Virus record (IMG/VR): IMGVR_UViG_2734482570_000003
Source: a virus
Lineage: Duplodnaviria; Heunggongvirae; Uroviricota; Caudoviricetes
Direction: 5' to 3' (one strand)
Length of the DNA: 33,537 bases
How positions within the stretch are numbered: position 1 is the stretch's first letter; the number at the start of each line of letters is the position of its first letter. The position numbers and the translations under genes are program-made. The notes under the pieces are model-generated. The model was not told where the DNA came from and searched no databases. It saw nothing but the letters and a program-made list of their open reading frames with translations. Below, one piece after another: positions 8,919 through 33,495 of this stretch.

Positions 8919-8927
8919 AAACATCCC

Positions 8928-10247: not shown

Positions 10248-13928
<3,681 letters not shown>

Positions 13929-13954
<26 letters not shown>

Positions 13955-14474
13955 TCAGCAACCCCGGTATCAGTTCATCCAGCGCGGCTGCTTTGTTCAT
14001 GGCTTTGATGATATCCCGTTTCAGGAAATCAATATGCCGGTTATCCAGCTCAGGAAAACGTCGCTGCACCGACAGAGGAATACCGTCGAGAATACTGGAT
14101 ATTTCCCTTGCTATACGCGACAGCACGAAAGTACAGAATGCGGTTTCCACCACTTCAGCCGATTCTTTGGCATTTTTCAGTTCCTGCGCCGTCGCCTGAG
14201 CACGAGTCAGGCGATGGCGCTCAAATTCAAGTGTTCCTGGGTGAAGATCTGCCTCGCTGGCCAGCCGCAGTTCTTCAACCTCCCGGCGCAGCTTTTCGTT
14301 CTCAATTTCAGCATCCCTTTCGGCATACCATTTTATGACGGCGGCAGAGTCATAAAGCACCTCATTACCCTTGCCACCGCCTCGCAGAACGGGCATTCCC
14401 TGCTCTTGCCAGTTCTGAATGGTACGGATACTCGCACCGAAAATATCAGCCAGCTGCTTTTTGTTGACTTCCAT
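13929..14474 (-). CDS. Nu1: Terminase small subunit Nu1
   Basis: 181 aa; N-terminal winged-helix segment MEVNKKQLADIFGASIRTIQNWQEQGMP; first gene after cos. Confidence 0.95.
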
Positions 14475-14519
14475 TGTTCATTCCACGGACAAAAACAGAG
14501 AAAGGAAACGACAGAGGCC

Positions 14520-14700
14520 AAAAAGCCCGTTTTCAGCATCTGTCGTTTCCTTTCTTTTCAGGGGGTGTTTTAAATAAAAACATGAAGTTACGGCGAAGAA
14601 GAACGGAAACGCCTTAAACCGGAAAATTTTCATAAATAGCGAAAACCCGCGCGCCTTCCGCCCCGTAACAGGCCGGATCGCCGGAAAGGACCCGCAAAGA
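14520..14700. other. cos region (cosB, cosN, cosQ) internal to the window; cosN about 14652-14663
   Basis: Reverse complement of 14581-14700 aligns with the remembered lambda cos flanks; the 12-nt cohesive-end position reads GGGCGGAAGGCG. Confidence 0.75.
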
Positions 14701-14915
14701 TGAGAATAATTATCACTTGCATTAATATCCGGCTTCTTCCACCCTCGCACAGGACTGGCGAGCATGAGGGACAAACCCGCGAATCATTAGCGCGGTAAAA
14801 ACCCGGTGTGCATCGTTTTTGATTATTTCCGCACACTCGCGCAGAGGAGTTCCCCGTCGGGCTACGGTCATGGTTAATGCGGAAATACGGCGACGATGCA
14901 GCGCGGTATTTAATG

Positions 14916-14931
14916 TGCGACCACGGTCGCA
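14916..14931. repeat. sopC-like centromere palindrome TGCGACC-AC-GGTCGCA (copy 1 of 4)
   Basis: Perfect 7-bp inverted arms around a 2-bp centre; one change per arm from the F-plasmid SopB site TGGGACC-AC-GGTCCCA. Confidence 0.6.
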
Positions 14932-14951
14932 AACGAGAAACAAAGAGATTT

Positions 14952-15263
14952 TTATGCTACAGAGGAACAAGCTGGCGGGTAATTCAGCGTAGTGAATACC
15001 GGCATCTCCATCTTGTATGCGTAATGATACTCAGCAGTTGCTCCAGCAGACGCTTTCCAGCCAGGAAGCATCAAAATAGCATCAGCACAACGAAGCATTG
15101 CAAAGCAAATATCCATGTATTCACGTTGTGTCAGACCATTAGGCAAAGTGGCTGGATTCAAGACAGAGTGACCATGTCGTGACAAACGATCTGCCTCTTT
15201 ATTAAAGGCGTCACGATTAAAGTTCTCATATCCCGTCATTGGCCCGGCAATATAAATTTTCAT
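14952..15263 (-). CDS. DUF4406-like protein (nucleoside 2-deoxyribosyltransferase-like fold)
   Basis: 103 aa with N-terminal MKIYIAGPMTG motif typical of that family; sits between lysis genes and cos. Confidence 0.5.
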   Translation of the reverse strand: MKIYIAGPMTGYENFNRDAFNKEADRLSRHGHSVLNPATLPNGLTQREYMDICFAMLRCADAILMLPGWKASAGATAEYHYAYKMEMPVFTTLNYPPACSSVA

Positions 15264-15304
15264 TCACTATCCAACAAATTGAGCTCGTTTTTGATACAGA
15301 GGTA

Positions 15305-15754
15305 TTAATTCAGGCATTGCGTCTTGATGTATTCCTGCAAGTAGTTAACCTGCGCAGTTATCCTGTCGATCCCACTTCGGAGACGGTAATAATTGAGTTC
15401 AGCATCTGCTGTAAGTCTTGGGCTTTCTCCATTGCCCATGCCGCTGGCTCCGGTCGTTGACTTTGCACAGGTGGCGGCGACTTGCAGGCGCTTACGCCCA
15501 GCAGAAACATCAGCACGGAGGCTTTCGATAGTCGCGTTAGCATCAGCAAGCTCCTTTGTATATCTGGCATCGAGTTCCGCTACGTCACGTTGACGCTTCT
15601 GCATATCAGCGATTGTGGATGTGGCTTTATCGCGCTGCTCTTTGTAGGCGATGGCGTTATCACGGTAATGATTAACAGCCCACGACAGGCAGACGATGAT
15701 GCAAATAACCAGAGCGGAGATAATCGCGGTTACCCTGCTCATTGTTGACCCCAC
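15305..15754 (-). CDS. Rz: Spanin inner-membrane subunit Rz (i-spanin)
   Basis: N-terminal TM helix [20 protein letters not shown] then coiled-coil; probable start at MSRV (about 15742); directly after the endolysin gene. Confidence 0.85.
15358..15540 (-). CDS. Rz1: Spanin outer-membrane lipoprotein Rz1 (o-spanin), embedded in Rz in another frame
   Basis: Embedded ORF with lipobox LLGVSAC followed by Pro-rich [13 protein letters not shown]; start codon uncertain. Confidence 0.6.
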
Positions 15755-16239
15755 AAACAGACTTCACGCTCAATCTCACGACGAGTCATCAGGCCTTTCC
15801 ATTGCTTACCGCCAGCAGATATCCAGCGACGTAGCTGATCACATGCGCCTTTGATATCGCCCTGGTTTATTTTGCGAAGAAGCGTCGATGTTCTGAAATT
15901 ACCAGCACCCACGTTGTAAACGAACGAGTAAAGAGCGCCGCGCGTTGTTTCCGGTATATCGACTTTGATGTACGGGTTAATTTGTCTGGCGACAGTGGCA
16001 AGGTCTTTATTCAGGAGAGCTTTGCATTCTGCTTCGGTATACGTTTTACCTAGCATGATGTCTTTTCCAGTGTGTCCATAACATACAGTCCATACGCCAA
16101 CAATATCTTTGTATGGTATGTAACTGACACCTTCCAGACCATCGTTACCACTTGGGCCAGTGATGAGCATAGACGCTATGGCAATAGCCCCGCCACCAAT
16201 AGCAGCTGTGACAGCTTTGCGTAATGATGACTGCATCAT
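15739..16239 (-). CDS. R: SAR endolysin (phage lysozyme, phage 21 R-type)
   Basis: 166 aa; N-terminal Gly/Ala-rich signal-anchor-release segment [21 protein letters not shown]; lysozyme-like core. Confidence 0.85.
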
Positions 16240-16508
16240 ATTTCCTTCGGTGCTCTCTTCCCCAGCTCTCCAATAACCATCGCTGTAGCAGAAAGATTAT
16301 TGGTATTAGTTTTATCCAATATGTCCTGCAATATCTTCGTGCGCTTCATCTGCTCGCGTTTATTGAGCCGGTATGTAAGCACACCGAGGATAATGCTGAA
16401 CGCGACACCGATAATGAAGCCCCAATCCTGCAATGACAGGCTGGCAAAGAACGCAGCAAGACCAGCGCTACCATAAGATGCACTGCTGTATCGTTCATCC
16501 ATCTTCAT
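16236..16508 (-). CDS. S: Putative holin (pinholin-like, two TM segments)
   Basis: 90 aa with two hydrophobic segments ([13 protein letters not shown] and [18 protein letters not shown]); overlaps the endolysin start; position. Confidence 0.6.
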
Positions 16509-16603
16509 ATCTCTTACCTCGCAATAGTTGCTGAGGTTTCGGCTTGGAAACTATATGGCGAAAATAACCCCTACCAAAAACGGCAGGGGAATATATTCTC
16601 CAG

Positions 16604-17725
16604 TTACTCAAATAACTTTTTCACTTCATCAACTGTCTGAAGATAACGTTCGCCCTCAATCTCAATACCTATTGCCTGACGTCCTAACTTCAGCGCAGCT
16701 TTAATAGTTGAGCCTGATCCCATAAAGAAATCGGCAACGATATCTCCGGGGCGTGAACTACTCTTTATAATATGTTCCATCATCGCTGCAGGTTTTTCAC
16801 ATGGGTGCTTGCCAGGATAATATTGCACAGGAGGAAACTCCCATACATCGGTATAAGGTACATCAGCAGTAACATGAAATGGACGGCGTAAATTTTCATA
16901 CTGAGCCTTCAAATCATCATACTGCTTCTTTACTTCCTCATAATGCAATTTCAGATCGCTATAACGCTTTTCATGTTCTGAATAATCAAAATTAAAAGGA
17001 TATGGACACGGGACACCGAGTGAATCTGCCTTCCTGCGAAATAATTCGCATAGTTTATTAAAATCAATTAATGATGGAAGCCGCCACTGCGAATAAGAAA
17101 ACCAGTGTGAACACATCTGCTTTCCTGTCGCTGAATTAATGTCTGCGGCTGATATATCTAACTGACGGCGAGCCAGCGAAAAAGCATCAATTAGTGGAGA
17201 AAAAATATTTTTTCTTAAATCTGCACATTTTGAAGCATAACCTGACTGACCTTTAGCATAACCTGACGCGCCGTAATGCTCTGCAAATAATATTCTTTCA
17301 GTAGCAGGAAAATAAGCCCTTAAACTTTCTTTATGACAACCGCGCCACATACCACTGGGTTTAGCCCAAATGATATGGTTCAGAACATTGAAACGGTCGC
17401 GAGTTAATAATTCAATTTTTGACGCAAGGCGAGAGCCGGTAAACATATACAGGCTGCCATTAGGGGCCAATATCCGCCAAAATTCTGCCAAAAATTCGTC
17501 AATCCACCCCAAAAAGTCAGCATCGCTATCCCACTGGTTATCCCATGCGTTAGCCTTTACGCCGAAGTATGGTGGGTCTGTTGCAATCAAATTGACCGAG
17601 TTATCAGGGATGGTTTTGATAAATTGCAGAGAATCTGCGCAAACGAGTTGTGCGCCATGAATATTAGTGGTTTTGAACATAGCTATTATTTTTTTGCCTG
17701 GGTAAGCTAACCCGGCGATGCGCAT
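16604..17725 (-). CDS. DNA methyltransferase, beta-class amino-MTase (N6-adenine or N4-cytosine), orphan
   Basis: DPPY motif IV near the N-terminus (LIATDPPYFG) and motif I near the C-terminus (DFFMGSGST); no adjacent restriction endonuclease candidate. Alternative start at 17680. Confidence 0.85.
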   Translation of the reverse strand: MRIAGLAYPGKKIIAMFKTTNIHGAQLVCADSLQFIKTIPDNSVNLIATDPPYFGVKANAWDNQWDSDADFLGWIDEFLAEFWRILAPNGSLYMFTGSRLASKIELLTRDRFNVLNHIIWAKPSGMWRGCHKESLRAYFPATERILFAEHYGASGYAKGQSGYASKCADLRKNIFSPLIDAFSLARRQLDISAADINSATGKQMCSHWFSYSQWRLPSLIDFNKLCELFRRKADSLGVPCPYPFNFDYSEHEKRYSDLKLHYEEVKKQYDDLKAQYENLRRPFHVTADVPYTDVWEFPPVQYYPGKHPCEKPAAMMEHIIKSSSRPGDIVADFFMGSGSTIKAALKLGRQAIGIEIEGERYLQTVDEVKKLFE

Positions 17726-17814
17726 CGCGGGTGGGCTTTAGGTTCAGCCTATAGCTCTGGCATGGGTTGACCGCAGGACAAGCTGCAACTTGTCCTGCGC
17801 CCACTTTTCAGGCA

Positions 17815-17837
17815 CAAAAAAACCGCCATAAAGGCGG
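17815..17837 (-). terminator. Rho-independent terminator upstream of the methyltransferase gene
   Basis: Minus strand CCGCC-TTTAT-GGCGG followed by T7-8 (plus-strand A-run 17815-17822). Confidence 0.6.
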
Positions 17838-17925
17838 CTTGTTGGCTGTTGGGTACAAAAAACCCAACTTAACAAAACAATAACTAAAAACCGTCATTTT
17901 GCCAAGCTTTTTCGTTTTTGTGCTG

Positions 17926-17941
17926 TGCGACCGTGGTCGCA
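17926..17941. repeat. sopC-like centromere palindrome TGCGACC-GT-GGTCGCA (copy 2; extends to 22-bp CTGTGCGACCGTGGTCGCACAG)
   Basis: Perfect palindrome; exact reverse-orientation match to copies 1 and 3. Confidence 0.6.
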
Positions 17942-17947
17942 CAGCTT

Positions 17948-18175
17948 TTAGAAAGTTGCCTGCTTATATTCATCGGTCAAAGAATATCGACCAGATCCGC
18001 TACGCTTTGCAACCCCAAAACAGATCATCTGTTCGATGATAAATTCAACGGCAGCTTGACTCAAAAAACAGGCTTCGCTTAACTCTTTCAGGGAAATGCG
18101 TGGGTATCCACGCATAACACATTCCACACTCAGGGCCGCTTCAGTCATATTTCCACGAATTTCATTAATATTCAT
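17948..18175 (-). CDS. Small winged-helix DNA-binding protein (hypothetical)
   Basis: 75 aa; helix-turn-wing pattern ...ISLKELSEACFLSQAAVEFIIEQMICFGVAKRSGSGRYSLT. Confidence 0.5.
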   Translation of the reverse strand: MNINEIRGNMTEAALSVECVMRGYPRISLKELSEACFLSQAAVEFIIEQMICFGVAKRSGSGRYSLTDEYKQATF

Positions 18176-18188
18176 AACGCCTCTCTAA

Positions 18189-18410
18189 TCAATCTTGAAA
18201 CTGGAAATCAACATCAGCCATAAAGCGGTTCAACTCAGCCAGTTTTGGCCCCATAGTCCCAACTAAGCGACCAGCCAGTCGGTCTGTTAGGTTGGTACTG
18301 TTGAAACCATATTCCTTTTCGAAACGTTCAACCTTCTGCCACAACTCATACAGTTCGTTAGCTATCTCCGCAACGTCGTCGCGCATTTTTTCGTTACCTT
18401 GATAATTCAT
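18189..18410 (-). CDS. Hypothetical acidic helical protein
   Basis: Track ORF 18189..18428; GGAGG sits inside the ORF before the second ATG, so the likely start is MNYQGNEK. Confidence 0.45.
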   Translation of the reverse strand: MNYQGNEKMRDDVAEIANELYELWQKVERFEKEYGFNSTNLTDRLAGRLVGTMGPKLAELNRFMADVDFQFQD

Positions 18411-18575
18411 AATATCCTCCAAATTCATATAGTTAGTGGGTTATTACCCCTCAATGACACGAACTGTAACTCTGCCAAACGAACACATCCAGTGTTATTT
18501 TTCGCTTTTTAGTGAAATTTTTGATTTGCGTTGTTTTCTTGTTTTGGTGTATTTTATGGATATGGAGGCTATAAT

Positions 18576-18887
18576 ATGTTTAACGTGATAACCCACCCTG
18601 CAGCACTGGATGAACTGCTTGAACTACCAGATGATTTGCGAGGTCGCATGACCAGATTAATTGAGCGACTGGAGAAAGAAGGCAACAAACTGAAGATGCC
18701 CCATAGCCGTGTAATAGGTGGAGGGCTTTTTGAACTACGAGTAGGGGATAAAAACATCGCAAGAACGCTGTACGCCTACGCGACTGGTAACGAAATTTAT
18801 CTATTGCATGCATTTGTAAAAAAGACACAGAAAACACCGGTGAAGGCTATCGAAATCGCCAGAACTCGCCTGAAGGAGATGAACTGA
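18576..18887 (+). CDS. Type II toxin, RelE/ParE superfamily (HigB / Gp49-like)
   Basis: Track ORF 18531..18887; GGAGG 8 nt before the ATG at 18576; Gp49/HigB-like sequence pattern; toxin precedes antitoxin. Confidence 0.7.
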   Translation: MFNVITHPAALDELLELPDDLRGRMTRLIERLEKEGNKLKMPHSRVIGGGLFELRVGDKNIARTLYAYATGNEIYLLHAFVKKTQKTPVKAIEIARTRLKEMN

Positions 18888-19174
18888 TGAAAGCGAAAGG
18901 CATCCCGTTTAACGAAGTAAAAGAAAAACTCCTCAACACTCCAGAAGCCGTCAAAGGATATGAAGAGGCCGACAAAGAGCTGGAGATGGTCGAAATGTTA
19001 TACGAAATGAGGGAAAGAGCAGGTTTAACGAAATCAGCTCTGGCTGAACGAATGGGGTTGCGACCGTCAGCCATCAGCCGCCTGGAAAGCAATCCTTTAG
19101 GGGCAAGTATGAAAACTTTGGCTAAATATGCTCATGCCTGCGGCGCAACCATCGATATTCGCGCTGTTTATTAA
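18887..19174 (+). CDS. HTH XRE-family antitoxin (HigA-like)
   Basis: 95 aa; HTH segment LTKSALAERMGLRPSAISRLE; start overlaps the toxin stop (TGATG). Confidence 0.7.
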   Translation: MKAKGIPFNEVKEKLLNTPEAVKGYEEADKELEMVEMLYEMRERAGLTKSALAERMGLRPSAISRLESNPLGASMKTLAKYAHACGATIDIRAVY

Positions 19175-19216
19175 TTAGACTCTTTTACTACCCCGTCCAG
19201 AAGGGCGGGGTGTGCA

Positions 19217-19420
19217 TCAATGATGTGAACGCTCAACAGCGATAGTTTGCTGACAATGCTGGGCAATCTCTCGCGACATGTTGATGAGTCGTGAAACCTC
19301 ACCAATATGTAGGCTGGCTTCTGGAGAAGCCAGGGTGACGCTAACCAGATCCAGAACGGCGTCAATATCTCTTAAATTTGAATCGAGTTGTTCAAGAGTT
19401 GATACGGCTGCTTCAGACAT
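19217..19420 (-). CDS. Hypothetical protein
   Basis: 67-aa ORF convergent with the toxin-antitoxin pair; no recognisable motif. Confidence 0.3.
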   Translation of the reverse strand: MSEAAVSTLEQLDSNLRDIDAVLDLVSVTLASPEASLHIGEVSRLINMSREIAQHCQQTIAVERSHH

Positions 19421-19502
19421 TAAATCTCATACCATTTAACTAAAAAAGGTTATTTATACTGTATAAAATTACAGGGTAAAACTCAAACTTTACGGTCAAT
19501 TT

Positions 19503-19745
19503 TCAATGAATTAACTGCGTAAACTGCTGTGTGACCCGATACTTATGCTCTCTCCCTATGCCACGATCAACTTTCTCAAGAAGTCCAGTACGGACAGCAG
19601 AATCAAGCATCCTTTTAACAATTCTGCTATTTAACCCAACATCAAAAGAAAGCATCGAAGCGAAAACAAAACCATCACCACCATCAGAAAAGCTCTTTTC
19701 GCTCCGTTTTCGTATCATTTCAAAAAGCAATGCCTTTTTATCCAT
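19503..19745 (-). CDS. Small winged-helix DNA-binding protein (hypothetical)
   Basis: 80 aa; GGAGG RBS; wing-like RGIGREHKYRVT. Confidence 0.5.
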   Translation of the reverse strand: MDKKALLFEMIRKRSEKSFSDGGDGFVFASMLSFDVGLNSRIVKRMLDSAVRTGLLEKVDRGIGREHKYRVTQQFTQLIH

Positions 19746-19752
19746 TTATCCC

Positions 19753-19766
19753 TCCGTGACCAGTCA
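19753..19766. repeat. Palindrome family B CGTGAC-CA-GTCACG (copy 1 of 3)
   Basis: Perfect 6-bp inverted arms with a 2-bp centre, immediately upstream of the RBS of the 19503..19745 gene. Confidence 0.5.
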
Positions 19767-20090
19767 CGCTTTGAGCGCAAGTTTCAGCCTCGTGGTTGTA
19801 AGGTGGCATGACCCTTCGCCATCAAAAATGCATTCTGAAACAGGCATTTTTTGACCACATCGCGGGCAAGTAGTAGATAGCTGCTTCTGCAGCTCCTTAT
19901 AGTTTTTCCTGATCAGCAAACCAATGACTTCGTTCTCCGAATATGGAACTCGCCCTGGTCTACGCAATACACAAATTTCCCCCAACATACGTAACTCGTC
20001 AGGTTCTAGAATCCAGTCCCGTCTTGATGTGCCTTCCTTCTTCAACCGTTCCCTGCGTCTCCTTTGCCGTTCTGCCGGTGTCAGCGCCAT
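19764..20090 (-). CDS. Hypothetical protein with Arg-rich N-terminus and Cys cluster (zinc-ribbon-like)
   Basis: 108 aa; CPRCGQKMPVSECIFDGEGSCH. Confidence 0.45.
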   Translation of the reverse strand: MALTPAERQRRRRERLKKEGTSRRDWILEPDELRMLGEICVLRRPGRVPYSENEVIGLLIRKNYKELQKQLSTTCPRCGQKMPVSECIFDGEGSCHLTTTRLKLALKA

Positions 20091-20105
20091 AAATCCTCCT
20101 GAAAA

Positions 20106-20636
20106 TTACTTAACCCAATTAACTACACCGCCAGCGGCCACAACCGCCCTTTCACAGTCACGCTCATATCTCAAAGGTTGAAATACACCATCAATAAAAT
20201 ATTTATCTCCACCAAACGCTGCAGGAAGTGAAACAGAAAACTGAATATGACCATCCGGAGTTACCGGAGAGTTGCCAGCCAGTCTACGCAACACAGCCTT
20301 AACGGCCTCAATACGGTCATCATCAACTTTTTCTACAATATTGGAATTTAAATACTTCGAAGCCTTGCTATGCCAATCGCTGGTTTTAGGGTCTTGTCCA
20401 TCCATCAAACGCCAAGCTTCAGCGATTAACTCATAGCCAGTGACAGTGGCTTCCTGCGCATCACCAATAAGTCGTGTAATCTCTCTTTCAAGCCGACCGC
20501 CTAGCTCTGTTTTAGTGCAATGTTCTGACCAATCGCCAGCCTCAAGCAGCGCGAGAATGCTTAAAATATCGTCCAATAGAACGGTAGTATTATCGACTTC
20601 CTTCTGAAACTCACCGGCTACTGATTTATGCATCAT
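20106..20636 (-). CDS. Hypothetical protein sharing an AGNxPVTPDG segment with the 20847..21596 protein
   Basis: 176 aa; no other recognisable motif. Confidence 0.5.
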   Translation of the reverse strand: MMHKSVAGEFQKEVDNTTVLLDDILSILALLEAGDWSEHCTKTELGGRLEREITRLIGDAQEATVTGYELIAEAWRLMDGQDPKTSDWHSKASKYLNSNIVEKVDDDRIEAVKAVLRRLAGNSPVTPDGHIQFSVSLPAAFGGDKYFIDGVFQPLRYERDCERAVVAAGGVVNWVK

Positions 20637-20935
20637 TCGTCATCCTCATCTGAGTCATCCTCATCACAGGATGAGAGTAGTGGGTTAGTCATTCGCCCTA
20701 CTTGAGTGGCGTAGCCACGCCGACAGAGATTGCGCAGCACACTGTATATTTCGAACATCTCGGTTCGTTCATCACCAACATCAAGCTCAGATGCTATAGC
20801 GTGGCATTCAGTCGCGAGAGCCGATATTTTCTGAAATAACTCTGCTTTATTCACTCTTCGACTCCTGCGGCGGTTCTGGTAGTGGCATCCAGTGAGTTGC
20901 TTGCTCAATACCATTACCCGGCTTAATCGTTGCAT
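20633..20935 (-). CDS. Hypothetical protein with acidic C-terminal tail
   Basis: 100 aa ending CDEDDSDEDDE; start uncertain. Confidence 0.35.
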   Translation of the reverse strand: MQRLSRVMVLSKQLTGCHYQNRRRSRRVNKAELFQKISALATECHAIASELDVGDERTEMFEIYSVLRNLCRRGYATQVGRMTNPLLSSCDEDDSDEDDE

Positions 20936-21596
20936 CTCCGCGCCGAAAGGTGCTTCCGGTATAGCGTGCGGAGCATATTAGCGGTTCAACCAGAGAGCTA
21001 TCGAAATTCACCGAAATAAGCACGTTCTGGCCCTTTTCAGGCATTCGCTCACTACAGCTTATCCAACCATCCGGAGTTACCGGATAGTTGCCAGCCTCAT
21101 ACGCGACCCTTATCCAGTGCATAAGCATTTCAGTACTTACACATCCACAATCAACATCAATTTTGTCATGCTGCTGTTCCAGCCATTGCTCAAAAGTTAA
21201 CTTGTAAGTTTGGCTTACAGGTTTGGCTTCCAGTTCTGCTATGTGATTTTTGGCTGATTCCAACTCAATCGACAATTTTTCCAACTGCTCTTTATGATTT
21301 TTATATTCCTGATATGCGTGCCAAGACTGACCTTTGCGCACACTATCAGTGATATCAGTAATCTGTTCTGGTGTTAGCGTGGTCAGTGGCTGTGATGGGA
21401 AAATAAGCACTTTCCCGGAATCCCAATCAAAACCAGCGTGAATTGACTGAACCTCAACTGAAGGTGTTGAACCAATGCTGCCAGGCGAATGAACAACGAT
21501 TGTTACATCCATATCGCGACGATGGCTGTGGTTGTTGGACAAAATACGATTCAACAAAATACGATTCACCAACTCAGAAAATTTAGAAAATTTCAT
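20847..21596 (-). CDS. Hypothetical phage protein with DUF551-like C-terminal domain
   Basis: 249 aa; coiled-coil middle; C-terminal ...ATHWMPLPEPP resembles DUF551 as remembered. Confidence 0.5.
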   Translation of the reverse strand: MKFSKFSELVNRILLNRILSNNHSHRRDMDVTIVVHSPGSIGSTPSVEVQSIHAGFDWDSGKVLIFPSQPLTTLTPEQITDITDSVRKGQSWHAYQEYKNHKEQLEKLSIELESAKNHIAELEAKPVSQTYKLTFEQWLEQQHDKIDVDCGCVSTEMLMHWIRVAYEAGNYPVTPDGWISCSERMPEKGQNVLISVNFDSSLVEPLICSARYTGSTFRRGDATIKPGNGIEQATHWMPLPEPPQESKSE

Positions 21597-21961
21597 GCTG
21601 ATTCACCTTTCTCTGCTCTCTCCTGTCGGAACATCACTATCATCAGGTCGCCTTTTGTCGCTATCTTGGCTGTTGTGCCTGGCTCAATGCGGCTAAGTTC
21701 AAATGCGTCATAGAACGCCTCCAACGCTTTCTGGCGTTTTTCCTGTTTGCGGCGCTTTCCCCACTGCTTTAGAAAAACAGAGGCCGCCCACTTCCCCGCA
21801 CTGAACATGATGTAAAACCAACCGAGAAGTGCCAGACCGGTATTTAGGGCCGTATCGATCGTTATCGTGGTGTCGATATTCACTACGCCACCTCCTGAAA
21901 ATTTCCCTGATAAAACGCCAACACACGCTGCATAACTTCGCTCTTCCGACAATCGTGACAA
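21593..21961 (-). CDS. Hypothetical protein, possible single TM segment
   Basis: 122-aa ORF overlapping both neighbours; hydrophobic LALLGWFYIMFSAGKWAASVF; true start unclear. Confidence 0.3.
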   Translation of the reverse strand: MSRLSEERSYAACVGVLSGKFSGGGVVNIDTTITIDTALNTGLALLGWFYIMFSAGKWAASVFLKQWGKRRKQEKRQKALEAFYDAFELSRIEPGTTAKIATKGDLMIVMFRQERAEKGESA

Positions 21962-22302
21962 ATCATGTTCAAGCGCCTGTCGTAACGACGTATTTCTCCG
22001 TCAGGTAATGACCAGATAAGGTCTGGATCAACCACTACCGATTTCTTCGGCTTTACTCTTGATAGTTTTTTACGGGCGTTTTGCCAGTCCTTGCGTGCTT
22101 GTGCAGACAGAAATATCCCGGAGCCAGAGATATACAAATCACCGCTGGCAGCAAGCTCTCTTGATAAACGACTAACAGCACACCGGCTAATACCAGTTTC
22201 ATCCGCAAGTTGCCTAACCGTTCCTCGTCCATTCAGGCGCACGAGTTCCACAATTTGTTTATTCAGTTCTTCCCTCTGTTCTGGTGTAAAAGCCTTTGCC
22301 AT
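21883..22302 (-). CDS. Putative winged-helix DNA-binding protein
   Basis: 139 aa; HTH-like RQLADETGISRCAVSRLSREL; C-terminal CHDC. Confidence 0.45.
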   Translation of the reverse strand: MAKAFTPEQREELNKQIVELVRLNGRGTVRQLADETGISRCAVSRLSRELAASGDLYISGSGIFLSAQARKDWQNARKKLSRVKPKKSVVVDPDLIWSLPDGEIRRYDRRLNMICHDCRKSEVMQRVLAFYQGNFQEVA

Positions 22303-22901
22303 TACGATTCTCCTTGCCCTTTTACAAGACGGGAGAAAATTGCGGATACATATTTAGCCTGATGAATAGCATCAGCCAGGGCATTGTGTCGTTCGCCATC
22401 AAATGGCATATCTTTTTTAGGATTAAAACCAATAAACTGACCAAGATTAACGATTGTTCGAACATCCTGATCATTAAAATATTCCCACGGACAGGCTAAG
22501 CCAACGCGCTCATAAGCACCGCGTAAAATTACATTATCGAACGTTGCTCCATTTCCCCATACTTTCAATTTTTTTAAATTACATGCATGGCAAGTAATAA
22601 AGTGTGATAATTCAAAAAGTGCATCCTTAATATCAAGGGCATCATTAGTACAAATAGCGGCTCTGGCTTACTTGCTCTGTTTCAACCACCATAAAATGGT
22701 ATCACCATCGGCGATACCACCATTCAACATCGAGCTTCTGAGATTCACTGGCACATAAAAAGTAGGACCTAATTCCTCACTTTCTGGAGAAAAAAACACT
22801 GCCCCGATAGAAACAATTGGAGCACATGTGTTAGTACCCATTGTTTCAAGGTCAATCATTACATCAGACCGTTTCCTGTCGTAAATAATCTGATTAGTCA
22901 C
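22302..22901 (-). pseudogene. DEDDh-type 3-prime-5-prime exonuclease interrupted by a single in-frame TAA
   Basis: ORFs 22668..22901 and 22302..22568 are in the same frame; the 33 codons between them are open; Exo I-like motif (MIDLETMGT) is in the first part and Exo III-like motif (HNALADAIHQAKY) in the second. Confidence 0.6.
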
Positions 22902-22924
22902 GAATAATTCTCCTCAACGTTTAT

Positions 22925-23152
22925 CTATACCCAAATTTTCTGTTGATATGTTCTGGATGGTTTTGGCGTTCTTTCTGATTCAGGTAAATGAACATAAACG
23001 CAATATCCATCACCTAAAAAATCAGAACGAACAACCAGAACTTTCTTACCACGCCGCCGATAAGTATCTGAAAGACGCTCTGCTTCATCATGCGTCATCG
23101 GCCCCTGCTTAAATGGCGTTATTTTCATTTTCTTGTGCGACCACGGTCGCAC
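22925..23152 (-). CDS. Hypothetical small protein
   Basis: 75-aa ORF; start uncertain. Confidence 0.3.
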   Translation of the reverse strand: MRPWSHKKMKITPFKQGPMTHDEAERLSDTYRRRGKKVLVVRSDFLGDGYCVYVHLPESERTPKPSRTYQQKIWV

Positions 23153-23429
23153 CCTCTCTGATTTCCAAGTAACGCTTAATCCAAAGATTTTCTATATGCT
23201 TATTACCTGGCTGATTTGATAAATACCAATCGGCAATTACAGACTGCTTATTACTATCTGGTCGTGTCCTGTAACCACAAGTTGGACACCAGATAACATA
23301 TTCATTTCTTACCCCCGAATACCTTAATTCTGGCTTCGACGGTTTCCTGAACATAACTTGTTTACAAAGACAGAATGGCACTTCCTGCCCGATGGCGTTT
23401 GATGATTTCACTGCGCTTCTCCGCCGCAT
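23109..23429 (-). CDS. Hypothetical protein with CxC...CxxC motif
   Basis: 106 aa; FCLCKQ ... WCPTCGY. Confidence 0.4.
   Translation of the reverse strand: MRRRSAVKSSNAIGQEVPFCLCKQVMFRKPSKPELRYSGVRNEYVIWCPTCGYRTRPDSNKQSVIADWYLSNQPGNKHIENLWIKRYLEIREGATVVAQENENNAI
23136..23151. repeat. sopC-like centromere palindrome TGCGACC-AC-GGTCGCA (copy 3)
   Basis: Identical 16-mer to copy 1; lies in the 3-prime end of the 23109..23429 ORF. Confidence 0.6.
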
Positions 23430-24072
23430 TTAATAATGCAGTTCGATTTAAGCTCAGACATCGCGACTTAATTAAAAGCCAGCGTTCTTTATAATCTTGT
23501 CTCCAGCTATCAATAGATATATTCAGTAGAAAACTCAGATGCCTGTCCTGTTCTCTCTCATCAACTGCCTCAGCACACGTAAGTTCTGATTTAACCTGTT
23601 GTGCCGCGTAATAAATCAATTTCCGCATGGCTTTTTTCGTGGAGGCCTTCATTTTTTTAAAGCCGCCCCCCGAATGAGCAACCAGAAAATCAAGCCATAA
23701 CCACTGACAAACAATCACATCATTGTTGTAATCAGGCTTGCATCCGTAGCAATAATAAAGCCAGGCTGATTCCTCGTTATTCAACTGACCAATAGCCCTG
23801 CGCCAGCTGGCGCTCTGAAAATCAATATCAGTGAGCAACATTGATGATTGTTTAAATGTTTTCCCCTGGTGGAATCTAACCGGCTCAGCAGGAACGGACA
23901 CTTCGTATGAGTTATCATCCCCCACACTGATTGACCGGACTGGTTTATTGTTAAACCGTCCTGATCTACCGAGACGCATCTGCTCAAGCTGGACCTCCAG
24001 AATGCCACGCTGGCGATAATGAACATCAGCCAATGCCGTAGAGACGCAGCTGCGTATATACTCAAGCTCCAC
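23362..24072 (-). CDS. Possible late-gene antiterminator Q-like protein (assignment by position only)
   Basis: 236-aa ORF immediately downstream of cro, where N15-type immunity regions carry Q; no motif verified. Confidence 0.35.
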   Translation of the reverse strand: MELEYIRSCVSTALADVHYRQRGILEVQLEQMRLGRSGRFNNKPVRSISVGDDNSYEVSVPAEPVRFHQGKTFKQSSMLLTDIDFQSASWRRAIGQLNNEESAWLYYCYGCKPDYNNDVIVCQWLWLDFLVAHSGGGFKKMKASTKKAMRKLIYYAAQQVKSELTCAEAVDEREQDRHLSFLLNISIDSWRQDYKERWLLIKSRCLSLNRTALLNAAEKRSEIIKRHRAGSAILSL

Positions 24073-24283
24073 GCTTACGACTCTCCTTAATCGACTGCTT
24101 TACCCGCCGAGTTGTAAAGTCACTCTTCAGCTTATAAGCAGTACGAACTTCAATATCGCTTTGCCGCAATGAAGGAATCTCTCCAGCGGTTAACCATTGG
24201 TAAACAGCTCCGGGTGTTACACCTACCCCTGCCGCTGCTTTTTCTACACTGCCAAAATGGCGAATAAGTTCTTCTGGTTTCAT
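24062..24283 (-). CDS. cro: Cro-like HTH regulator
   Basis: Track ORF 24062..24310; probable start MKPEEL; HTH AAAGVGVTPGAVYQWL; divergent from the repressor gene. Confidence 0.7.
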   Translation of the reverse strand: MKPEELIRHFGSVEKAAAGVGVTPGAVYQWLTAGEIPSLRQSDIEVRTAYKLKSDFTTRRVKQSIKESRKRGA

Positions 24284-24310
24284 GTTGTTATTATAAACAA
24301 TAAACAACAA

Positions 24311-24352
24311 TTAAAGCCAGCTATAATAAATAAATTTTATAGCCAGCTATAA
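24311..24352. promoter_or_regulatory. Two operator-like 16-bp palindromes in the cro / cB divergent control region
   Basis: TTATAGC-CA-GCTATAA (perfect) at 24337-24352 and TTAAAGC-CA-GCTATAA (one mismatch) at 24311-24326, centres 26 bp apart; AT-rich -10-like hexamers overlap. Confidence 0.65.
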
Positions 24353-24374
24353 GAAGATCATTTATGATTACAGT

Positions 24375-24971
24375 ATGAAAACACGAGGCGAACGACTGAA
24401 AGCACGCCGTTTAGAGATGAAGCTGACGTTGCGAGAAGTTGCTGAGGCTGTCGATATCTCTATAGCAGGCGTCCAAAACTTAGAACGTGGCGACGTAATG
24501 CCGTCACTGGAGATAGGTATTGCCCTGGCTAAGTGCTTACGCAAGCCAGTGCATTGGGTGCTATATGGGACAGAATATGACCCTGATCGCATTCCTGTTA
24601 TTGGCACAACTGAAAGTGGGCCGGATGAAGAGTGGAAGCCGGGACAGGTTCCAAATACTGAGCGATTCCTGCCATTCATCAGCCAGCGCAATACTGTGTA
24701 TGCGTTAACTATCAGCAATCTTACGCAGGGAAACTATCAGCCAGGCGATTTTCTCCTGGTCGATTCTGCGCTGGAACTGGTCCCCGGCGAGGATGTTCTG
24801 GTTCGTGATACTGCAGGAAATATCACTATCCAGCGCCTGGCCCGTTTTGATGATGAAAATTACTATCTGGATGGAACAAACTCACAACGCGCCATCTTCA
24901 GGAAAAGCGATCTTGAATTTGTTCACCAAATAGTCGGAACGATCAAATCATTCATGGTTGAGGGTAGATGA
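24375..24971 (+). CDS. cB: Prophage repressor (CI/CB-like; N-terminal HTH, C-terminal LexA/S24-like domain)
   Basis: 198 aa; HTH LTLREVAEAVDISIAGVQNLERG; C-terminal GDFLLVDSALELVPGEDVLV resembles an S24 fold; divergent from cro with operators between. Confidence 0.8.
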   Translation: MKTRGERLKARRLEMKLTLREVAEAVDISIAGVQNLERGDVMPSLEIGIALAKCLRKPVHWVLYGTEYDPDRIPVIGTTESGPDEEWKPGQVPNTERFLPFISQRNTVYALTISNLTQGNYQPGDFLLVDSALELVPGEDVLVRDTAGNITIQRLARFDDENYYLDGTNSQRAIFRKSDLEFVHQIVGTIKSFMVEGR

Positions 24972-25073
24972 CTTAATACGGGGTTTATTGTTTGCTGTAA
25001 ATCTGGTTTAATGCAGGGCATATGTTCTGTGGGTTGACTCAGGTTACAGCAGCAGAAAAAAGACGAAAAAAAA

Positions 25074-25100
25074 CCCGAGTCGGCAAACTCGGGTCCTTTT
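25074..25100 (+). terminator. Rho-independent terminator after the repressor gene
   Basis: CCCGAGT-CGGCAA-ACTCGGG followed by TCCTTTT; preceded by an A-run. Confidence 0.65.
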
Positions 25101-25216
25101 CAGGAAGCAGCCACAGTAACGCGACGGATTCCGTCAATTCAAGATGCGTTTATTGTGGCTGCTCCTGCGGATTTTTTCAACCCGAAAAAACATAATTCGC
25201 ATGGAATGGCTAAAAA

Positions 25217-28200
25217 ATGACATTAAACGATTTCTATGCGGATCGCTTTGGCAGCGATCCGTTCTCGCTAATTGAAGCAGCACGGGATGAACTAACCGAG
25301 CTGGCACAGATGGCTGGTATCAACTGGCCTGCCTGTTCCGACAACATCCAACTCAACCCTCGCGGGGGGGTTGAGCGTTACTCTTCATACAATAAAACAT
25401 CTCCAGAAGCTCTCGAAAAGAGCCTGAAAGGACGCGTAGAAATTTACTCCAGGCTGGAACACAGCAAAGGGATTGATTACCCGTTCATTAACTTCGTCCA
25501 TAAAGGCAGCGATGCTGGCTCATGGAGCGGTTTCTCCTTCCTGTTTTCTGAATATCGCCGTGAGCAACAACGGAATAATGCGACCGTGGTCGCACAACCG
25601 GAAGAAGAACGGGAAAGAATAGAACGTCAGGCCGAAGCACGTCGTCGCCGTGAAGAACAAAAACGAATTAATGACCTGAAAAACAACCAAATGGACCATG
25701 AACGTTTGCTGGGATGGCTGGCATTCCACAGCGCGTGGGAACATGCTCCGGCTGAAGACGGCTCATGGCCATATGCGATTAAAAAAGGTATTCGTGACGT
25801 TTTTAGTTCATGTGATGTGCGTCGCGTGACCAGTCACGACAGTGCGAAATGGAGCCGGGGGCCAACCACATATATGGCTATCCCTCTGGCTCACCTGGAC
25901 AGTCGTTATGATGGTCGTATTGTGGGTTGGCAGCGAATCGACAAACAAGGTGGGAAATACCAGACCAGCGCAGTAACCAGCGGCGATTTCGTCGGTGCCT
26001 GCTTTGTTATCGGTGAGCTGAAAGGGGCGCAAAACATCGCTGTTACAGAAGGTTTTGCTACTGGTGCATCCATCTGGCTTGCCACGAAAAAAGATAAACG
26101 CTTTGACGCTGTGGTTGTCGCTGTATCCGCTAACAACATGGTTCATGTTGTGGAACAACTGGTAAACATGTACCCGGCGGCAAAAATCACCTGCGCACTG
26201 GATAATGACCGGAAATCTGCCACAGAAGGAAAAGGGAATACCGGCCTGCGGACTGGCTATGAAATCTTATCGAAATTCAACGATGTCCGCTGCGTCTATC
26301 CAACTTTTGAAGACGATCCGCAAATGGAGTGCAGTGACTTCAACGACCTGCACAAACTACGTGGACTTCGTGAAACAGCACGTCAACTATTTGCAACAGC
26401 AAACCGCCTGAAAACCGGTACTGATTTGCTATCTCTGACGCTCAACCGCCTGAAGACAATTAAGCGGGATAACCGTCGTACTTTTGCCAAAGAGCTGCTG
26501 AGAGCGGTGGATATTGGCATGCTAACCTGTCCGGTTCCTAACAGTCCGTCAGATTTATTTAACATGTTCTGCATCGTTCTGCGTGAAATGGGACTGGAAA
26601 ATATCTATCGTGCTACGGTAAAAGACCACATTGCCCGTCGCCTGAATAAAAAGTGCCGTATTGCCCAGGCTCCGCGCTCTTTCAGCGAACGCATAACTGA
26701 TCCCAATAAACGACCTCAACATATCACCTATAAGCGTTTTGAAACTTCGGTAATGACCGATGATGTCCTGAAGTACGTGCAATCACTACAGGGGATAGTC
26801 ATCGTCCGTGCTGGTATGGGTTCCGGCAAATCTACTGGATTGTTACGACCGTTAATGCATAGCTCAGAACGTGGTATCTCTGTTGCTCACCGTGTCTCCC
26901 TTATTGGTGGCCTGTGGGAAATGATGACAGAAGGAAAAGGTGTAAAAGCCGATATCCTGCACTATCAGGATCCTGGCTATCAGGAAATGGCTCCATACGC
27001 CAGTAAACTGACCATCTGCATAAACTCGATTGTTAAAAACTGCTGGCAACCGTTGATGCGCCAGCACGACTATTTTGGCTTTGACGAGGCCACACAAGGG
27101 CTACGTGCCGTTCTTTCCGGTCGGGCTATGGAAAACCCGGTGGCTGTATTCAATACGCTAATTGACGCGCTGGCCAGAACGGAACAACACCCAATCATGG
27201 TGGATGCTGATGCGAACGATCTGCTGGTTGACCTGGCTGAACTAGCTATGAAACGCCGTGAAGAACTAGGTTTACCGGCATGGCTGCAGATCCACGTAAT
27301 TGAATTACCTGTTGATGTTCGCAACCGCGAAACAGGTGAGCCAATCCGGGTTTTTTATACAGAAAAAGATCGCATCATGACCGAGGTGGTGAAAGCTGTA
27401 TCGGATGGCGAAAAAATCATGTTGGCCACCGACAGCTCCACCTTTGCAGAAGATGTGACAGCCACCCTGAGAATGCATTTTCCTGGTAAGAAATTTCTGT
27501 GTGTAAACCAGAAAAACAAACCAGAGCCAGAAGTTGAAGCATTTACCAATCAACCGAAAAAGATGGTCAAAAAATACGACGGCCTGATTTATAGCCCGTC
27601 TATTTCATCCGGCGTGTCGATTGAGCAAAAACATTTTGACCGTCATTTCGGCATGTTCTGTGGTGAAGTTGTACCCAGCGACGCAGTGCAAATGCTACGC
27701 CGCGACCGTACAGCAAAAGAATTTATTATCGGCTTTGATAAAGCTCGTGCAAAACGTGAAACTGACCCGCAAAAAATAGAACGAGCATTCGCCCAGGCAT
27801 TGCTTGCTACTGCAGGTATGAACGGTGAACTGACGGATGTCGTTTTCGATGGCGACCGTATATCAATGGGGGTGGCCAATACCGACTTTACCAGGATGAA
27901 AATTAAAGCAGCCGCAATTGAAGCGTCTGCACGTAACGACTACGCCAGCAACATGATCTGCATCATGCACAGCGACGGTTATAAGATATCGCCGCTGGCC
28001 ACCGATTATGCTGCAAATGATATCGGTAAAGATCTGCGTAAAGAAGCGCGGGATATTGTGTGGGAACAGACACTGGATCTGCATCTCAATACAGAAACTC
28101 CACAAGAATCAGAGCGTGAAGAACTGCTAAAAAAACGCGCGCTAACGCTTGAAGAACAGGCAAAACTTGTCCGCTGGGATATTGAGAACGAACTGAAACT

Positions 28201-29212
28201 ACCGGTTGAAGAAGGCACGCTGAAATTCTATTTCGATGGTGCTCGAGACAAAGTTCGCCGCTATGAAACAATGCTTTTAGATGAGGTAACAGCTCGTCGT
28301 TACGACCGGGAAGAAGCAGCCATCAATTTTACCTACGCATACCGTCAGGCGGGACAGTGGCAATATTTTGTAGTGACCGCAATGACTCGCGAGCAGGCTG
28401 ATGATGTCTTTAAAACTAAATTCCCTGGAATAATCGACTACAAGGTAAAAGCTACTCCTACTGTTGAAGTCGGGGCGCGCGGTTTCTATGCGCTTAAATC
28501 AGCAACTCTCCGGCAGTACTTTATCGACTGCGGTATCAACCCTGAGACTATGACCGGCGAGGCGACTCAGGAGCGTCTCAAATTTGCTCGAGATAACCTC
28601 ATGACAGCCGAACGCCGTGACCTGTTGAATAACGTTCTGCACATTGGTGGTTTTATGACGCCAAAAGGGAAGCCTAAAGTGCCGGAAGCGTTGTTTAAAA
28701 ACATTTGCGACTCTCTTGGCCTTAAAACAGGTAAACGTCGCGGCAGAGACGGCGATAAGCGTCCAACCTTGCGTTTTGTTGAGCCTGAATCAGCGGCATT
28801 TATGCTGGATATTCTTGCTCAGCGTCAGAAAGATGGCCTAACCCTGAAAACGCGTAAAGCCGAGAAGACCGCCATCGAAATGGATCGCGATTTGGATCTC
28901 AATATATATATGGATGATAAAACGCGATCCACAAACGAGCAGGTTCAAAACGCCCCTCATTCAGTAATTTCTGAGGCTTTGGCCGTGTTGCCAGTGGCTG
29001 TACCTGAGTCCTGGGCGATGAGTGCGCTTTCCAGTGAGGAGTTGGCCACCATGTCATCATGGTCATCAGCCAGCATAGCTATGACGTTTGCATCCCTGTA
29101 CCTCACAGAGTTCATGGATCACCTTTCCAGCAATGAGCTGCGGCGGTTACGTGAATACATTACGGGGAATAGCTCATGCAGCTACGAAGAGCAGGGCGCT
29201 TTCTATGGGTAA
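25217..29212 (+). CDS. repA: Replication protein RepA (N-terminal TOPRIM primase domain plus P-loop helicase domain)
   Basis: 1331 aa; TOPRIM-like motifs (AVTEGFATGAS, ALDNDRKS); Walker A AGMGSGKST and Walker B-like FGFDEA; adjacent to cB as in N15-type phages. Confidence 0.85.
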   Translation: MTLNDFYADRFGSDPFSLIEAARDELTELAQMAGINWPACSDNIQLNPRGGVERYSSYNKTSPEALEKSLKGRVEIYSRLEHSKGIDYPFINFVHKGSDAGSWSGFSFLFSEYRREQQRNNATVVAQPEEERERIERQAEARRRREEQKRINDLKNNQMDHERLLGWLAFHSAWEHAPAEDGSWPYAIKKGIRDVFSSCDVRRVTSHDSAKWSRGPTTYMAIPLAHLDSRYDGRIVGWQRIDKQGGKYQTSAVTSGDFVGACFVIGELKGAQNIAVTEGFATGASIWLATKKDKRFDAVVVAVSANNMVHVVEQLVNMYPAAKITCALDNDRKSATEGKGNTGLRTGYEILSKFNDVRCVYPTFEDDPQMECSDFNDLHKLRGLRETARQLFATANRLKTGTDLLSLTLNRLKTIKRDNRRTFAKELLRAVDIGMLTCPVPNSPSDLFNMFCIVLREMGLENIYRATVKDHIARRLNKKCRIAQAPRSFSERITDPNKRPQHITYKRFETSVMTDDVLKYVQSLQGIVIVRAGMGSGKSTGLLRPLMHSSERGISVAHRVSLIGGLWEMMTEGKGVKADILHYQDPGYQEMAPYASKLTICINSIVKNCWQPLMRQHDYFGFDEATQGLRAVLSGRAMENPVAVFNTLIDALARTEQHPIMVDADANDLLVDLAELAMKRREELGLPAWLQIHVIELPVDVRNRETGEPIRVFYTEKDRIMTEVVKAVSDGEKIMLATDSSTFAEDVTATLRMHFPGKKFLCVNQKNKPEPEVEAFTNQPKKMVKKYDGLIYSPSISSGVSIEQKHFDRHFGMFCGEVVPSDAVQMLRRDRTAKEFIIGFDKARAKRETDPQKIERAFAQALLATAGMNGELTDVVFDGDRISMGVANTDFTRMKIKAAAIEASARNDYASNMICIMHSDGYKISPLATDYAANDIGKDLRKEARDIVWEQTLDLHLNTETPQESEREELLKKRALTLEEQAKLVRWDIENELKLPVEEGTLKFYFDGARDKVRRYETMLLDEVTARRYDREEAAINFTYAYRQAGQWQYFVVTAMTREQADDVFKTKFPGIIDYKVKATPTVEVGARGFYALKSATLRQYFIDCGINPETMTGEATQERLKFARDNLMTAERRDLLNNVLHIGGFMTPKGKPKVPEALFKNICDSLGLKTGKRRGRDGDKRPTLRFVEPESAAFMLDILAQRQKDGLTLKTRKAEKTAIEMDRDLDLNIYMDDKTRSTNEQVQNAPHSVISEALAVLPVAVPESWAMSALSSEELATMSSWSSASIAMTFASLYLTEFMDHLSSNELRRLREYITGNSSCSYEEQGAFYG
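25579..25594. repeat. sopC-like centromere palindrome TGCGACC-GT-GGTCGCA (copy 4, inside repA, encodes ATVVA)
   Basis: Perfect palindrome within the repA coding sequence. Confidence 0.6.
25825..25838. repeat. Palindrome family B CGTGAC-CA-GTCACG (copy 2, inside repA)
   Basis: Exact 14-mer match to the 19753 copy. Confidence 0.5.
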
Positions 29213-29396
29213 TGATTGGATATTATCTTTGTGTCTCTTGCTTTGTGTGTTCCATCTATGGTTTTGGTTCATAGACCGAAAGTCTCACAAGGAAAACATG
29301 AAGGCCAGGAAGGCGATGTTTCGTGGTGAACAATTTGCGCAGACTTATCGTATGTGGAAACGTTTCTATCGTGAATTTTCGGTGAACAGGGAGTAA
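29203..29396 (+). CDS. Possible small membrane protein overlapping the repA stop
   Basis: ATG inside the final repA codons; about 63 aa with one TM helix (WILSLCLLLCVFHLWFWFI) and a basic tail; part of track ORF 29088..29396. Confidence 0.3.
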
Positions 29397-29400
29397 AAAT

Positions 29401-29727
29401 ATGTCTACTACTGCATTTTTGGACAAACTTGATTACCGTCAGCTGCAGTTCTGCCGGGATGAATGCGAACGACGCATTAGGGCTATCCAGGAGGAAGAAA
29501 AAAAGGTCGCCTGGGCTGTAACAGATCGTGGCCTTATCTTTGGCTGGTTCCGTACGGAGGATTATCTGAAAGCAGTGGAATTATTGGCGCGTAAGGCTGC
29601 TGAGCGTTGGGAACTAGCCGACAAGGAAAACCCGGAGACGAAGTATGAACTGAATCTCTACATCGAGGGCAACCGTCTACCATTGTCAGAGTATAACGCT
29701 TTGTTTGCTGATGGTGAGTGGGGTTAA
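29401..29727 (+). CDS. Hypothetical protein
   Basis: 108 aa; GGGAG RBS about 9 nt upstream. Confidence 0.55.
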   Translation: MSTTAFLDKLDYRQLQFCRDECERRIRAIQEEEKKVAWAVTDRGLIFGWFRTEDYLKAVELLARKAAERWELADKENPETKYELNLYIEGNRLPLSEYNALFADGEWG

Positions 29728-29729
29728 AA

Positions 29730-30125
29730 ATGGCTGTTCAATCATACAAATACGAATCCCCTTTGGATAAGGGATACATTCGTATCAAGTTAAGTCGTTC
29801 TCAGCATAAGGCTATTTTTAAGGTAAGGAAAATTCGCATATTGGATGCGTATGCGTATTACTACAACGGTGAAAATGTTGTTGTTGAACACTTTCTTGCA
29901 CGATGGTTTGTAGCTCTGATTTTTGTCCCTCTCCTGTTAATTGGTACTTTTGTGGATGGTTTTCCTAGTACATGGCGGGAGATAAAGAAAGGCCTATTCC
30001 CGCATAAGTACGGCAGATTTTCGCAAGATAGCTGGCGAGTTATACCTGGTAAACATTCTGTAGATGAGCAACCGATTGTTGATTCCTGGTTGAATCGTAT
30101 GGCTGATGCTAAAAAAGTTGATTGA
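29730..30125 (+). CDS. Hypothetical membrane protein (one TM helix)
   Basis: Track ORF 29718..30125; start MAVQSYKYE; TM WFVALIFVPLLLIGTFV. Confidence 0.5.
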   Translation: MAVQSYKYESPLDKGYIRIKLSRSQHKAIFKVRKIRILDAYAYYYNGENVVVEHFLARWFVALIFVPLLLIGTFVDGFPSTWREIKKGLFPHKYGRFSQDSWRVIPGKHSVDEQPIVDSWLNRMADAKKVD

Positions 30126-30152
30126 ATTGTGATGACTGTTACAGGAGATAAA

Positions 30153-30440
30153 GTGAAGAGTTTTATTTTTGTTTTATGTTTTGCCTTTTCTGCTGCAGTT
30201 TATGCCCAGGAAGATAGCATTTCTGTTATTAACTCATCAGCGGAGCTTGCATGTAAAAATAATCCCGATGCTGCATCAAAAGAGTCATGCAAAGAGCTGC
30301 TCCTTTCGACGGCTGCTTTTGCTTCTGAAAATGCAAAATTTTATTCAGCCTTTTGTCGCGGCTATGTTAAGGACGAAGATAAAGAAAAATGTGATGATGC
30401 CGGTAAGTTAGTTAGGTATTTCCAATCTCTTAATCAGTAA
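30153..30440 (+). CDS. Small secreted Cys-containing protein (signal peptide)
   Basis: AGGAG RBS then GTG start; signal peptide MKSFIFVLCFAFSAAVYA / QEDS; four Cys in the mature part. Confidence 0.55.
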   Translation: MKSFIFVLCFAFSAAVYAQEDSISVINSSAELACKNNPDAASKESCKELLLSTAAFASENAKFYSAFCRGYVKDEDKEKCDDAGKLVRYFQSLNQ

Positions 30441-30501
30441 TGGCCTTTGATTAACGATCAACTTCTGATCACTCGTTCAAGCAAACTATAAAAACACCTG
30501 T

Positions 30502-30521
30502 CCCCGTGACTGGTCACGGGG
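30502..30521. repeat. Palindrome family B, extended copy CCCCGTGAC-TG-GTCACGGGG (copy 3)
   Basis: Perfect 9-bp arms; core CGTGAC-TG-GTCACG is the reverse orientation of the other two copies; just upstream of the putative small-RNA promoter. Confidence 0.5.
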
Positions 30522-30542
30522 TAAAATGTCTTTGCAAATTAT

Positions 30543-30572
30543 TGACGTGTGCGTCGTTTTGACGGTAAAGTT
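30543..30572 (+). promoter_or_regulatory. Putative sigma70-type promoter (TTGACG - 18 bp - TAAAGT) for the leader or small RNA
   Basis: Hexamers read by eye; spacing approximate. Confidence 0.3.
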
Positions 30573-30574
30573 TA

Positions 30575-30653
30575 CTCCGCTACGGTAAATCCCGTAGCCG
30601 GGCGTAGGAACCCGAGTAAATGAAGCGCACAACACGCGCCAGCGTGTTTTTTT
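30575..30653 (+). ncRNA. Candidate small regulatory RNA / leader transcript (c4-type antisense RNA analogue)
   Basis: Non-coding stretch with hairpin GCTACGG-TAAATC-CCGTAGC and intrinsic terminator ACACGC-GCCA-GCGTGT plus T6 (30632-30653); GCGTAGGAAC at 30602 recurs at 30768 in the downstream leader. Confidence 0.3.
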
Positions 30654-30816
30654 GTGTGTAAAATCTGCGTACACCAAATTTATGGTGGCTCAGATGGGGC
30701 AGCTTTTAGCTGGCCGGTTTCTTCGTTTACCGGTATTCCTACCCCCGTCTGGGCTACCGCCATATAGAGCGTAGGAACTCTGGTGGTAGCACGACCAATT
30801 AAACGGAGTGCATACC

Positions 30817-31372: not shown

Positions 31373-31384
31373 ACCACACAACAA

Positions 31385-31407: not shown

Positions 31408-31417
31408 ACCGTATGCT

Positions 31418-33458: not shown

Positions 33459-33495
33459 CTAAAATTTGTTCCTTGACTTTGTTCTAAAGATCAGC

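Follow-up and report, generated by a model that had tools for sequence, protein, structure and literature searches.

Do two small neighbouring open reading frames (ORFs) on one strand of a Shigella sonnei contig represent two genes, or a single gene that has been interrupted, and if the latter, how did the interruption arise? The DNA concerned, referred to here as the window, is the whole of contig CWZI01000041.1 (assembly GCA_001250015.1), 33,537 bp in length, and the locus is a minus-strand frame of 200 codons (22901..22302) in which translation reveals one internal stop, a TAA at codon 78 (22670..22668). A first-pass annotation had described, leaving the strand unstated, two ORFs in the same frame with 33 open codons between them, a single TAA at 22668-22670 as the sole interruption, and an Exo I-like motif upstream and an Exo III-like motif downstream of that stop. 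Each of these points is borne out, in that 22569..22667 is open on translation, the strand is minus, and the motifs MIDLETMG and HNALAD lie on opposite sides of the TAA. Among the readings offered there, a recent loss-of-function nonsense mutation, in what is an accessory Rv2179c/DexA-like DEDDh 3'-5' exonuclease gene, is very probably the correct one.

Domain content and relatives of the interrupted gene

The features of the locus are collected in Table 1. When the frame was searched with the stop masked as X, residues 13-188 of the repaired protein matched positions 2-176 of the 177-position Pfam profile PF16473 (E 2.1e-67), and at 226.7 bits, against a gathering cut-off of 27, the match takes in the whole domain. 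The fragments searched singly each matched only their own half of the profile. One Pfam stretch running across the stop, together with halves that match the respective profile halves, argues that the two ORFs are not a chance juxtaposition. Membership of PF16473 is also seen by motif, using the list of DEDDh catalytic residues in PMC12153337: Exo I (D-x-E) is encoded in MIDLETMG upstream of the stop, and the Exo II Asp (in FDNVIL) and Exo III (H-x4-D, in HNALAD) are both encoded downstream. A functional member carries all of these motifs on one translatable polypeptide; here the TAA leaves Exo I on one side and Exo II and III on the other, and of the DEDDh motifs the N-terminal fragment keeps only the first.

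Apart from the stop, the protein is 100% identical to WP_032144474.1 ('3'-5' exonuclease'), encoded by plasmids pCAVP367-48 and E1 p2. Candidate starts are a GTG at 22901, with GAGGAG 8 nt upstream, and an ATG at 22859, the latter being the start chosen by RefSeq in relatives. No NCBIfam family was found for the protein, PADLOC returned a marginal DEDDh match (E 0.0035), and a promoter and terminator scan inside the gene gave nothing meaningful beyond chance. The DUF977 gene that follows has its own AAGGAG 7 nt upstream of its start.

Table 1. Features of the exonuclease locus and of the window end, in window coordinates
Feature	Position	Strand	Remarks
DUF977 gene, downstream, intact	21883..22302	-	ATG overlaps the exonuclease stop (TAATG)
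Whole exonuclease frame	22302..22901	-	PF16473, DEDDh; now a pseudogene
C-terminal remnant ORF	22302..22568	-	88 aa, TTG start; carries Exo II and Exo III
A7 homopolymer within exonuclease gene	22569..22575	-	Codons Lys-Lys; intact in the window
Premature TAA	22668..22670	-	Replaces GAA = Glu78 (GTG numbering) / Glu64 (ATG numbering)
ORF including stop, GTG start	22668..22901	-	77 aa; from program-made ORF list
N-terminal fragment, still translatable	22671..22901	-	77 aa from GTG, 63 aa from ATG
Protelomerase gene	31418-33325	-	Adjoins the 42-bp palindrome

Pfam names PF16473 (Rv2179c-like 3'-5' exoribonuclease, with a DEDDh/DnaQ-like fold) after the Mycobacterium tuberculosis exoribonuclease Rv2179c. 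The repaired protein is a full-length match to this family with all five DEDDh residues, whereas, compared with intact members, the gene in the window is broken at codon 64 (ATG numbering) and no complete domain is possible. Homologues fall into 1705 clusters and, among the 120 listed, are mostly 185-195 aa long. Among phage records, 596 of 672 match 80% or more of the query at a single place, and of the 60 best, 58 encode the protein in one piece; the N15-like Yersinia phage PY54 (gene 51) is one of these. Judged from these sequences, the family is one of single polypeptides of about 185-195 aa. In an alignment of 43 homologues (58-83% identity), D3, E5, D108, H158 and D163 (ATG numbering) are invariant and E64, the residue replaced by the stop, is at least 90% conserved.

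By sequence, the closest protein of solved structure is the DNA exonuclease DexA of phage T4 (exonuclease A; PDB 8KEL/8KEN), with E 4.9e-7 over residues 2-112. D7, E9 and D119 of DexA align with D3, E5 and D108 of the window's protein, and the mutated Glu sits in a W-W-x-x-Q-S-x-E-A-R segment common to both. DexA, however, is a protein of 227 aa with extra loops, and since the sequence alignment takes in only the N-terminal 60%, equivalents of W152 and D169 are not assigned. An E. coli DexA homologue, EcD ('HREX'), was reported in 2025 to degrade 5hmC DNA and to protect against T4, its type being marked by close homology to EcD (HAK9828821.1), by conservation of the Trp and Asp of 5hmC recognition, and by loss of the tetramerisation Asp (PMC12153337). 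A link of the window's protein to EcD/HREX, with 5hmC specificity and a role in defence, is putative and only a lead. Closer homologues are found in N15-like and lambdoid phages, namely PY54 gene 51, mEp460, ST64B sb30 and epsilon34 gp34 (56-73% identity over at least 97% of the length); these are intact single ORFs in an early or accessory region, whereas the copy in the window is broken. The label 'exodeoxyribonuclease VIII', although often applied, is a misnomer for these exonucleases, given their Pfam assignment to PF16473.

The match of phrog_8783, a PHROG family of 114 aa and 'unknown function', is confined to the C-terminal half of the repaired protein (residues 73-183; window 22302-22640), so that the family seems to derive from the C-terminal pieces of exonuclease genes that had split. 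In phages SKA5 (OR670062.1) and phiNP (OR565852.1) the exonuclease gene is in two pieces. A naturally split gene, as phrog_8783 might imply, was considered and rejected, the split copies breaking at differing sites.

The carrier element

Close relatives of the window are non-mobilizable plasmids of about 46 kb from E. coli, E. albertii, E. fergusonii and S. sonnei, as well as phages PhiR46_1 and YDC107_1. Their annotation includes a protelomerase, a 1331-aa CyRepA1 replication protein, a cB-like repressor, Cro and Q, SopAB partition genes, and lambda-like head and tail genes. With a protelomerase beside a presumed palindromic telomere site, a large RepA, an immunity region (cB/cro/Q) and lambda-like structural genes, the element is an N15-like linear plasmid-prophage, an assignment made from the RefSeq annotation of relatives mapped to the window at identities of 99.7-99.99% (pCAVP367-48) or 97.4-99.9% (others). 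When 46 genes of pCAVP367-48 were mapped to the window, 44 proved full length and one ran off the window edge, which leaves the exonuclease gene as the sole one with an internal stop.

The contig ends exactly on a perfect 42-bp palindrome (window 33496-33537; ACATAATTCCCCATTATACGC/GCGTATAATGGGGAATTATGT), which presumably serves the linear plasmid-prophage as its telomere-resolution site; pCAVP367-48, a RefSeq relative, begins 72 bp inside it. The two halves of the window have diverged unequally from this relative, with 46 mismatches and one gap in the structural half (window 1-14904) versus 2 SNPs in the 18.7 kb of the early/replication half, which suggests mosaic recombination between phage-plasmid lineages. 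In pCAVP367-48 there is also about 1.6 kb of extra sequence (18562-20516), with two hypothetical genes, that is absent from the window; the 171 bp at window 14734-14904 match both of its flanks, which suggests that the segment was inserted or deleted between direct repeats. The toxin gene (RelE/ParE family) and the HTH antitoxin gene at window 18576-19171 (plus strand) are both identical to those of pCAVP367-48, and the other SNP of the 18.7-kb block, base 18523, is intergenic and lies just upstream of the toxin gene.

Origin of the stop codon

The changed base is at window 22670, where the plus strand has A and relatives have C; on the coding strand this is G232T, GAA>TAA. The exonuclease genes of E1 plasmid p2 and pCAVP367-48 are those of the window except for GAA in place of TAA. 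The latter plasmid, the nearest relative, shows 2 differences in 18,732 bp (window 14734-33465), one at 22670, the first base of the stop codon, and one at intergenic base 18523. GAA is present in all three relatives that were directly aligned, one of them a phage record. Two 61-mers with GAA, one each for synonymous GCT and GCA backgrounds, match 13 and 14 plasmid records exactly, so that GAA is found in 27 of 27, the S. sonnei plasmid NZ_CP061364.1 among them. The window's own 61-mer with TAA has no exact match among plasmid records, and a TAA-bearing 31-mer has no match in genome, viral and metagenome contig collections; this last absence only shows that the allele is rare, the representative-genome set evidently being without the window's assembly. 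Comparison with orthologues for a sense codon at the stop site, proposed in the first-pass annotation, therefore returned GAA in every relative checked. Orthologues that end at this stop and are followed by a separate conserved gene were not found among them, splits elsewhere being sporadic frameshifts. With GAA>TAA as one of two differences in 18.7 kb, and GAA in all relatives checked, the recent nonsense mutation proposed at the outset is strongly supported.

If the true sequence were GAA, with an intact gene, the TAA would be a sequencing or assembly error. A single-base change within an otherwise near-identical element, absent from every complete plasmid, E. coli genome and phage record matched, is in keeping with that possibility, but several observations make it quite unlikely. 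Run ERR1364145 has a Logan contig, assembled separately, that shows the same TAA and agrees with the window at 100% identity over 3908 bp, and the 77-aa product, deposited as 'exonuclease family protein [Shigella sonnei]', is on record under two NCBI accessions, CSM13167.1 and SRT15818.1, the longest contig on record with this product being 45,596 bp compared with 33,537 bp for the window. The allele is thus present in more than one assembly, and its occurrence in a second, longer contig and in the ERR1364145 assembly makes a random base-call error unlikely; the other TAA assemblies may nevertheless come from the same isolate or outbreak clone. The change is moreover a substitution rather than a homopolymer indel, and the contig is otherwise free of an error signature, with no other internal stop among the mapped genes and 2 SNPs in 18.7 kb. 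The 63-aa product expected from the ATG start is not on record, as gene callers took the GTG start. The short contigs L007 and L008 were considered as further carriers of the TAA and rejected, as both merely end at that codon; L007 reads GA... (wild type) there.

Two further explanations would keep a working enzyme despite a real stop, either through decoding of the TAA at some frequency to give full-length protein (programmed or tolerated readthrough), or through separate 77-aa and 88-aa products that reassemble into a functional enzyme. The open frame past the stop and the undamaged state of both halves could be taken to favor readthrough; they are equally expected of a very recent mutation. 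The stop at codon 78 is absent from all relatives checked, and is thus not conserved as a recoding site. There is no tRNA or suppressor gene in the window, and the 111 nt of RNA that surround and follow the stop show no advantage over shuffles in folding (z +0.53). UAA, recognised by both release factors, is the stop codon with the least leakage in E. coli and Shigella. A two-piece enzyme could draw on the facts that gene finders call both ORFs, that each matches its half of PF16473, and that PHROGs includes phrog_8783, a family of C-terminal-half ORFs. However, the only in-frame restart codons are TTG (codon 112) and ATG (codon 165), neither with a Shine-Dalgarno motif and both preceded by A/T-only sequence (the 20 nt upstream of the TTG-started 88-aa ORF are ATGCATGTAATTTAAAAAAA), and a restart at codon 112 would lose residues 79-111. 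Nor is the position of the split conserved, other copies being broken elsewhere by frameshifts or other nonsense changes, and break sites that differ among split copies form a pattern of decay rather than of design. With an unconserved stop, no tRNA, no special fold and no restart with a Shine-Dalgarno motif, both explanations were rejected, readthrough as extremely improbable and reassembly of two products as hardly credible.

Consequences and other broken alleles

Under the preferred reading, recent nonsense mutation, a conserved Glu codon, GAA, became TAA by a coding-strand G>T transversion at window 22670, and translation would end after residue 77, or residue 63 as counted from the ATG. 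The predicted product would keep the acidic pair of Exo I (D3, E5) and lose D108 of Exo II and H158 and D163 of Exo III. Without the Asp of Exo II and the His and Asp of Exo III, the two-metal DEDDh active site should be unable to form, which would make this a null allele; loss of exonuclease activity is thus predicted from motif content. The rest of the element is intact, and because the DUF977 gene keeps its own ribosome-binding site, the knockout is probably costless for plasmid maintenance. In the 366 nt past the stop that would go untranslated, there is no Rho-utilisation-like C-rich, G-poor stretch (C/G at most 1.38), and this, together with the AAGGAG of the DUF977 gene, suggests that a strong polar effect is not to be expected. 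We infer that neighbouring genes are spared a polar effect and that the exonuclease is dispensable.

The 88-aa remnant ORF is found on 24 other contigs, and among the 10 listed the exonuclease gene is broken differently. Public assemblies contain at least five other independent null alleles, making at least six distinct ones, including the window's E78*, in one 600-bp gene of N15-like phage-plasmids. The others comprise the frameshifts A7>A8 and A7>A6, the latter against three SNP backgrounds, the nonsense changes E97* (G>T again) and L109*, and a T-run deletion that occurs together with A7>A6. In relatives, which have A6 and A8 alleles, the A7 tract is a frameshift hot spot. Contigs with the exact intact product of 185 aa number 996, and 171 have one GTG-start form of 199 aa, so the disrupted fraction is a few per cent at most. 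That the gene is a repeated target of inactivation, and not a one-off casualty, is a doubtful proposition. If it were so, some hosts might select against a DexA-like nuclease or, alternatively, a lineage-specific A7 tract might act as an on/off switch; and if the intact protein is a defence nuclease of the EcD/HREX type, the null alleles would represent the natural loss of a defence that the prophage had brought.

In summary, the family and the kind of element are both known, the locus is an ordinary pseudogene among them, and no new mechanism is opened by it. For annotation, the two small ORFs become one flagged PF16473 3'-5' exonuclease pseudogene, and neither two genes nor an 'exodeoxyribonuclease VIII', and the TAA allele could act as a lineage marker for the S. 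sonnei phage-plasmid. The knockout indicates that this N15-like element can be carried without the exonuclease and, in light of the anti-T4 role recently proposed for the wider family (PMC12153337), natural null alleles such as this one could serve as controls.
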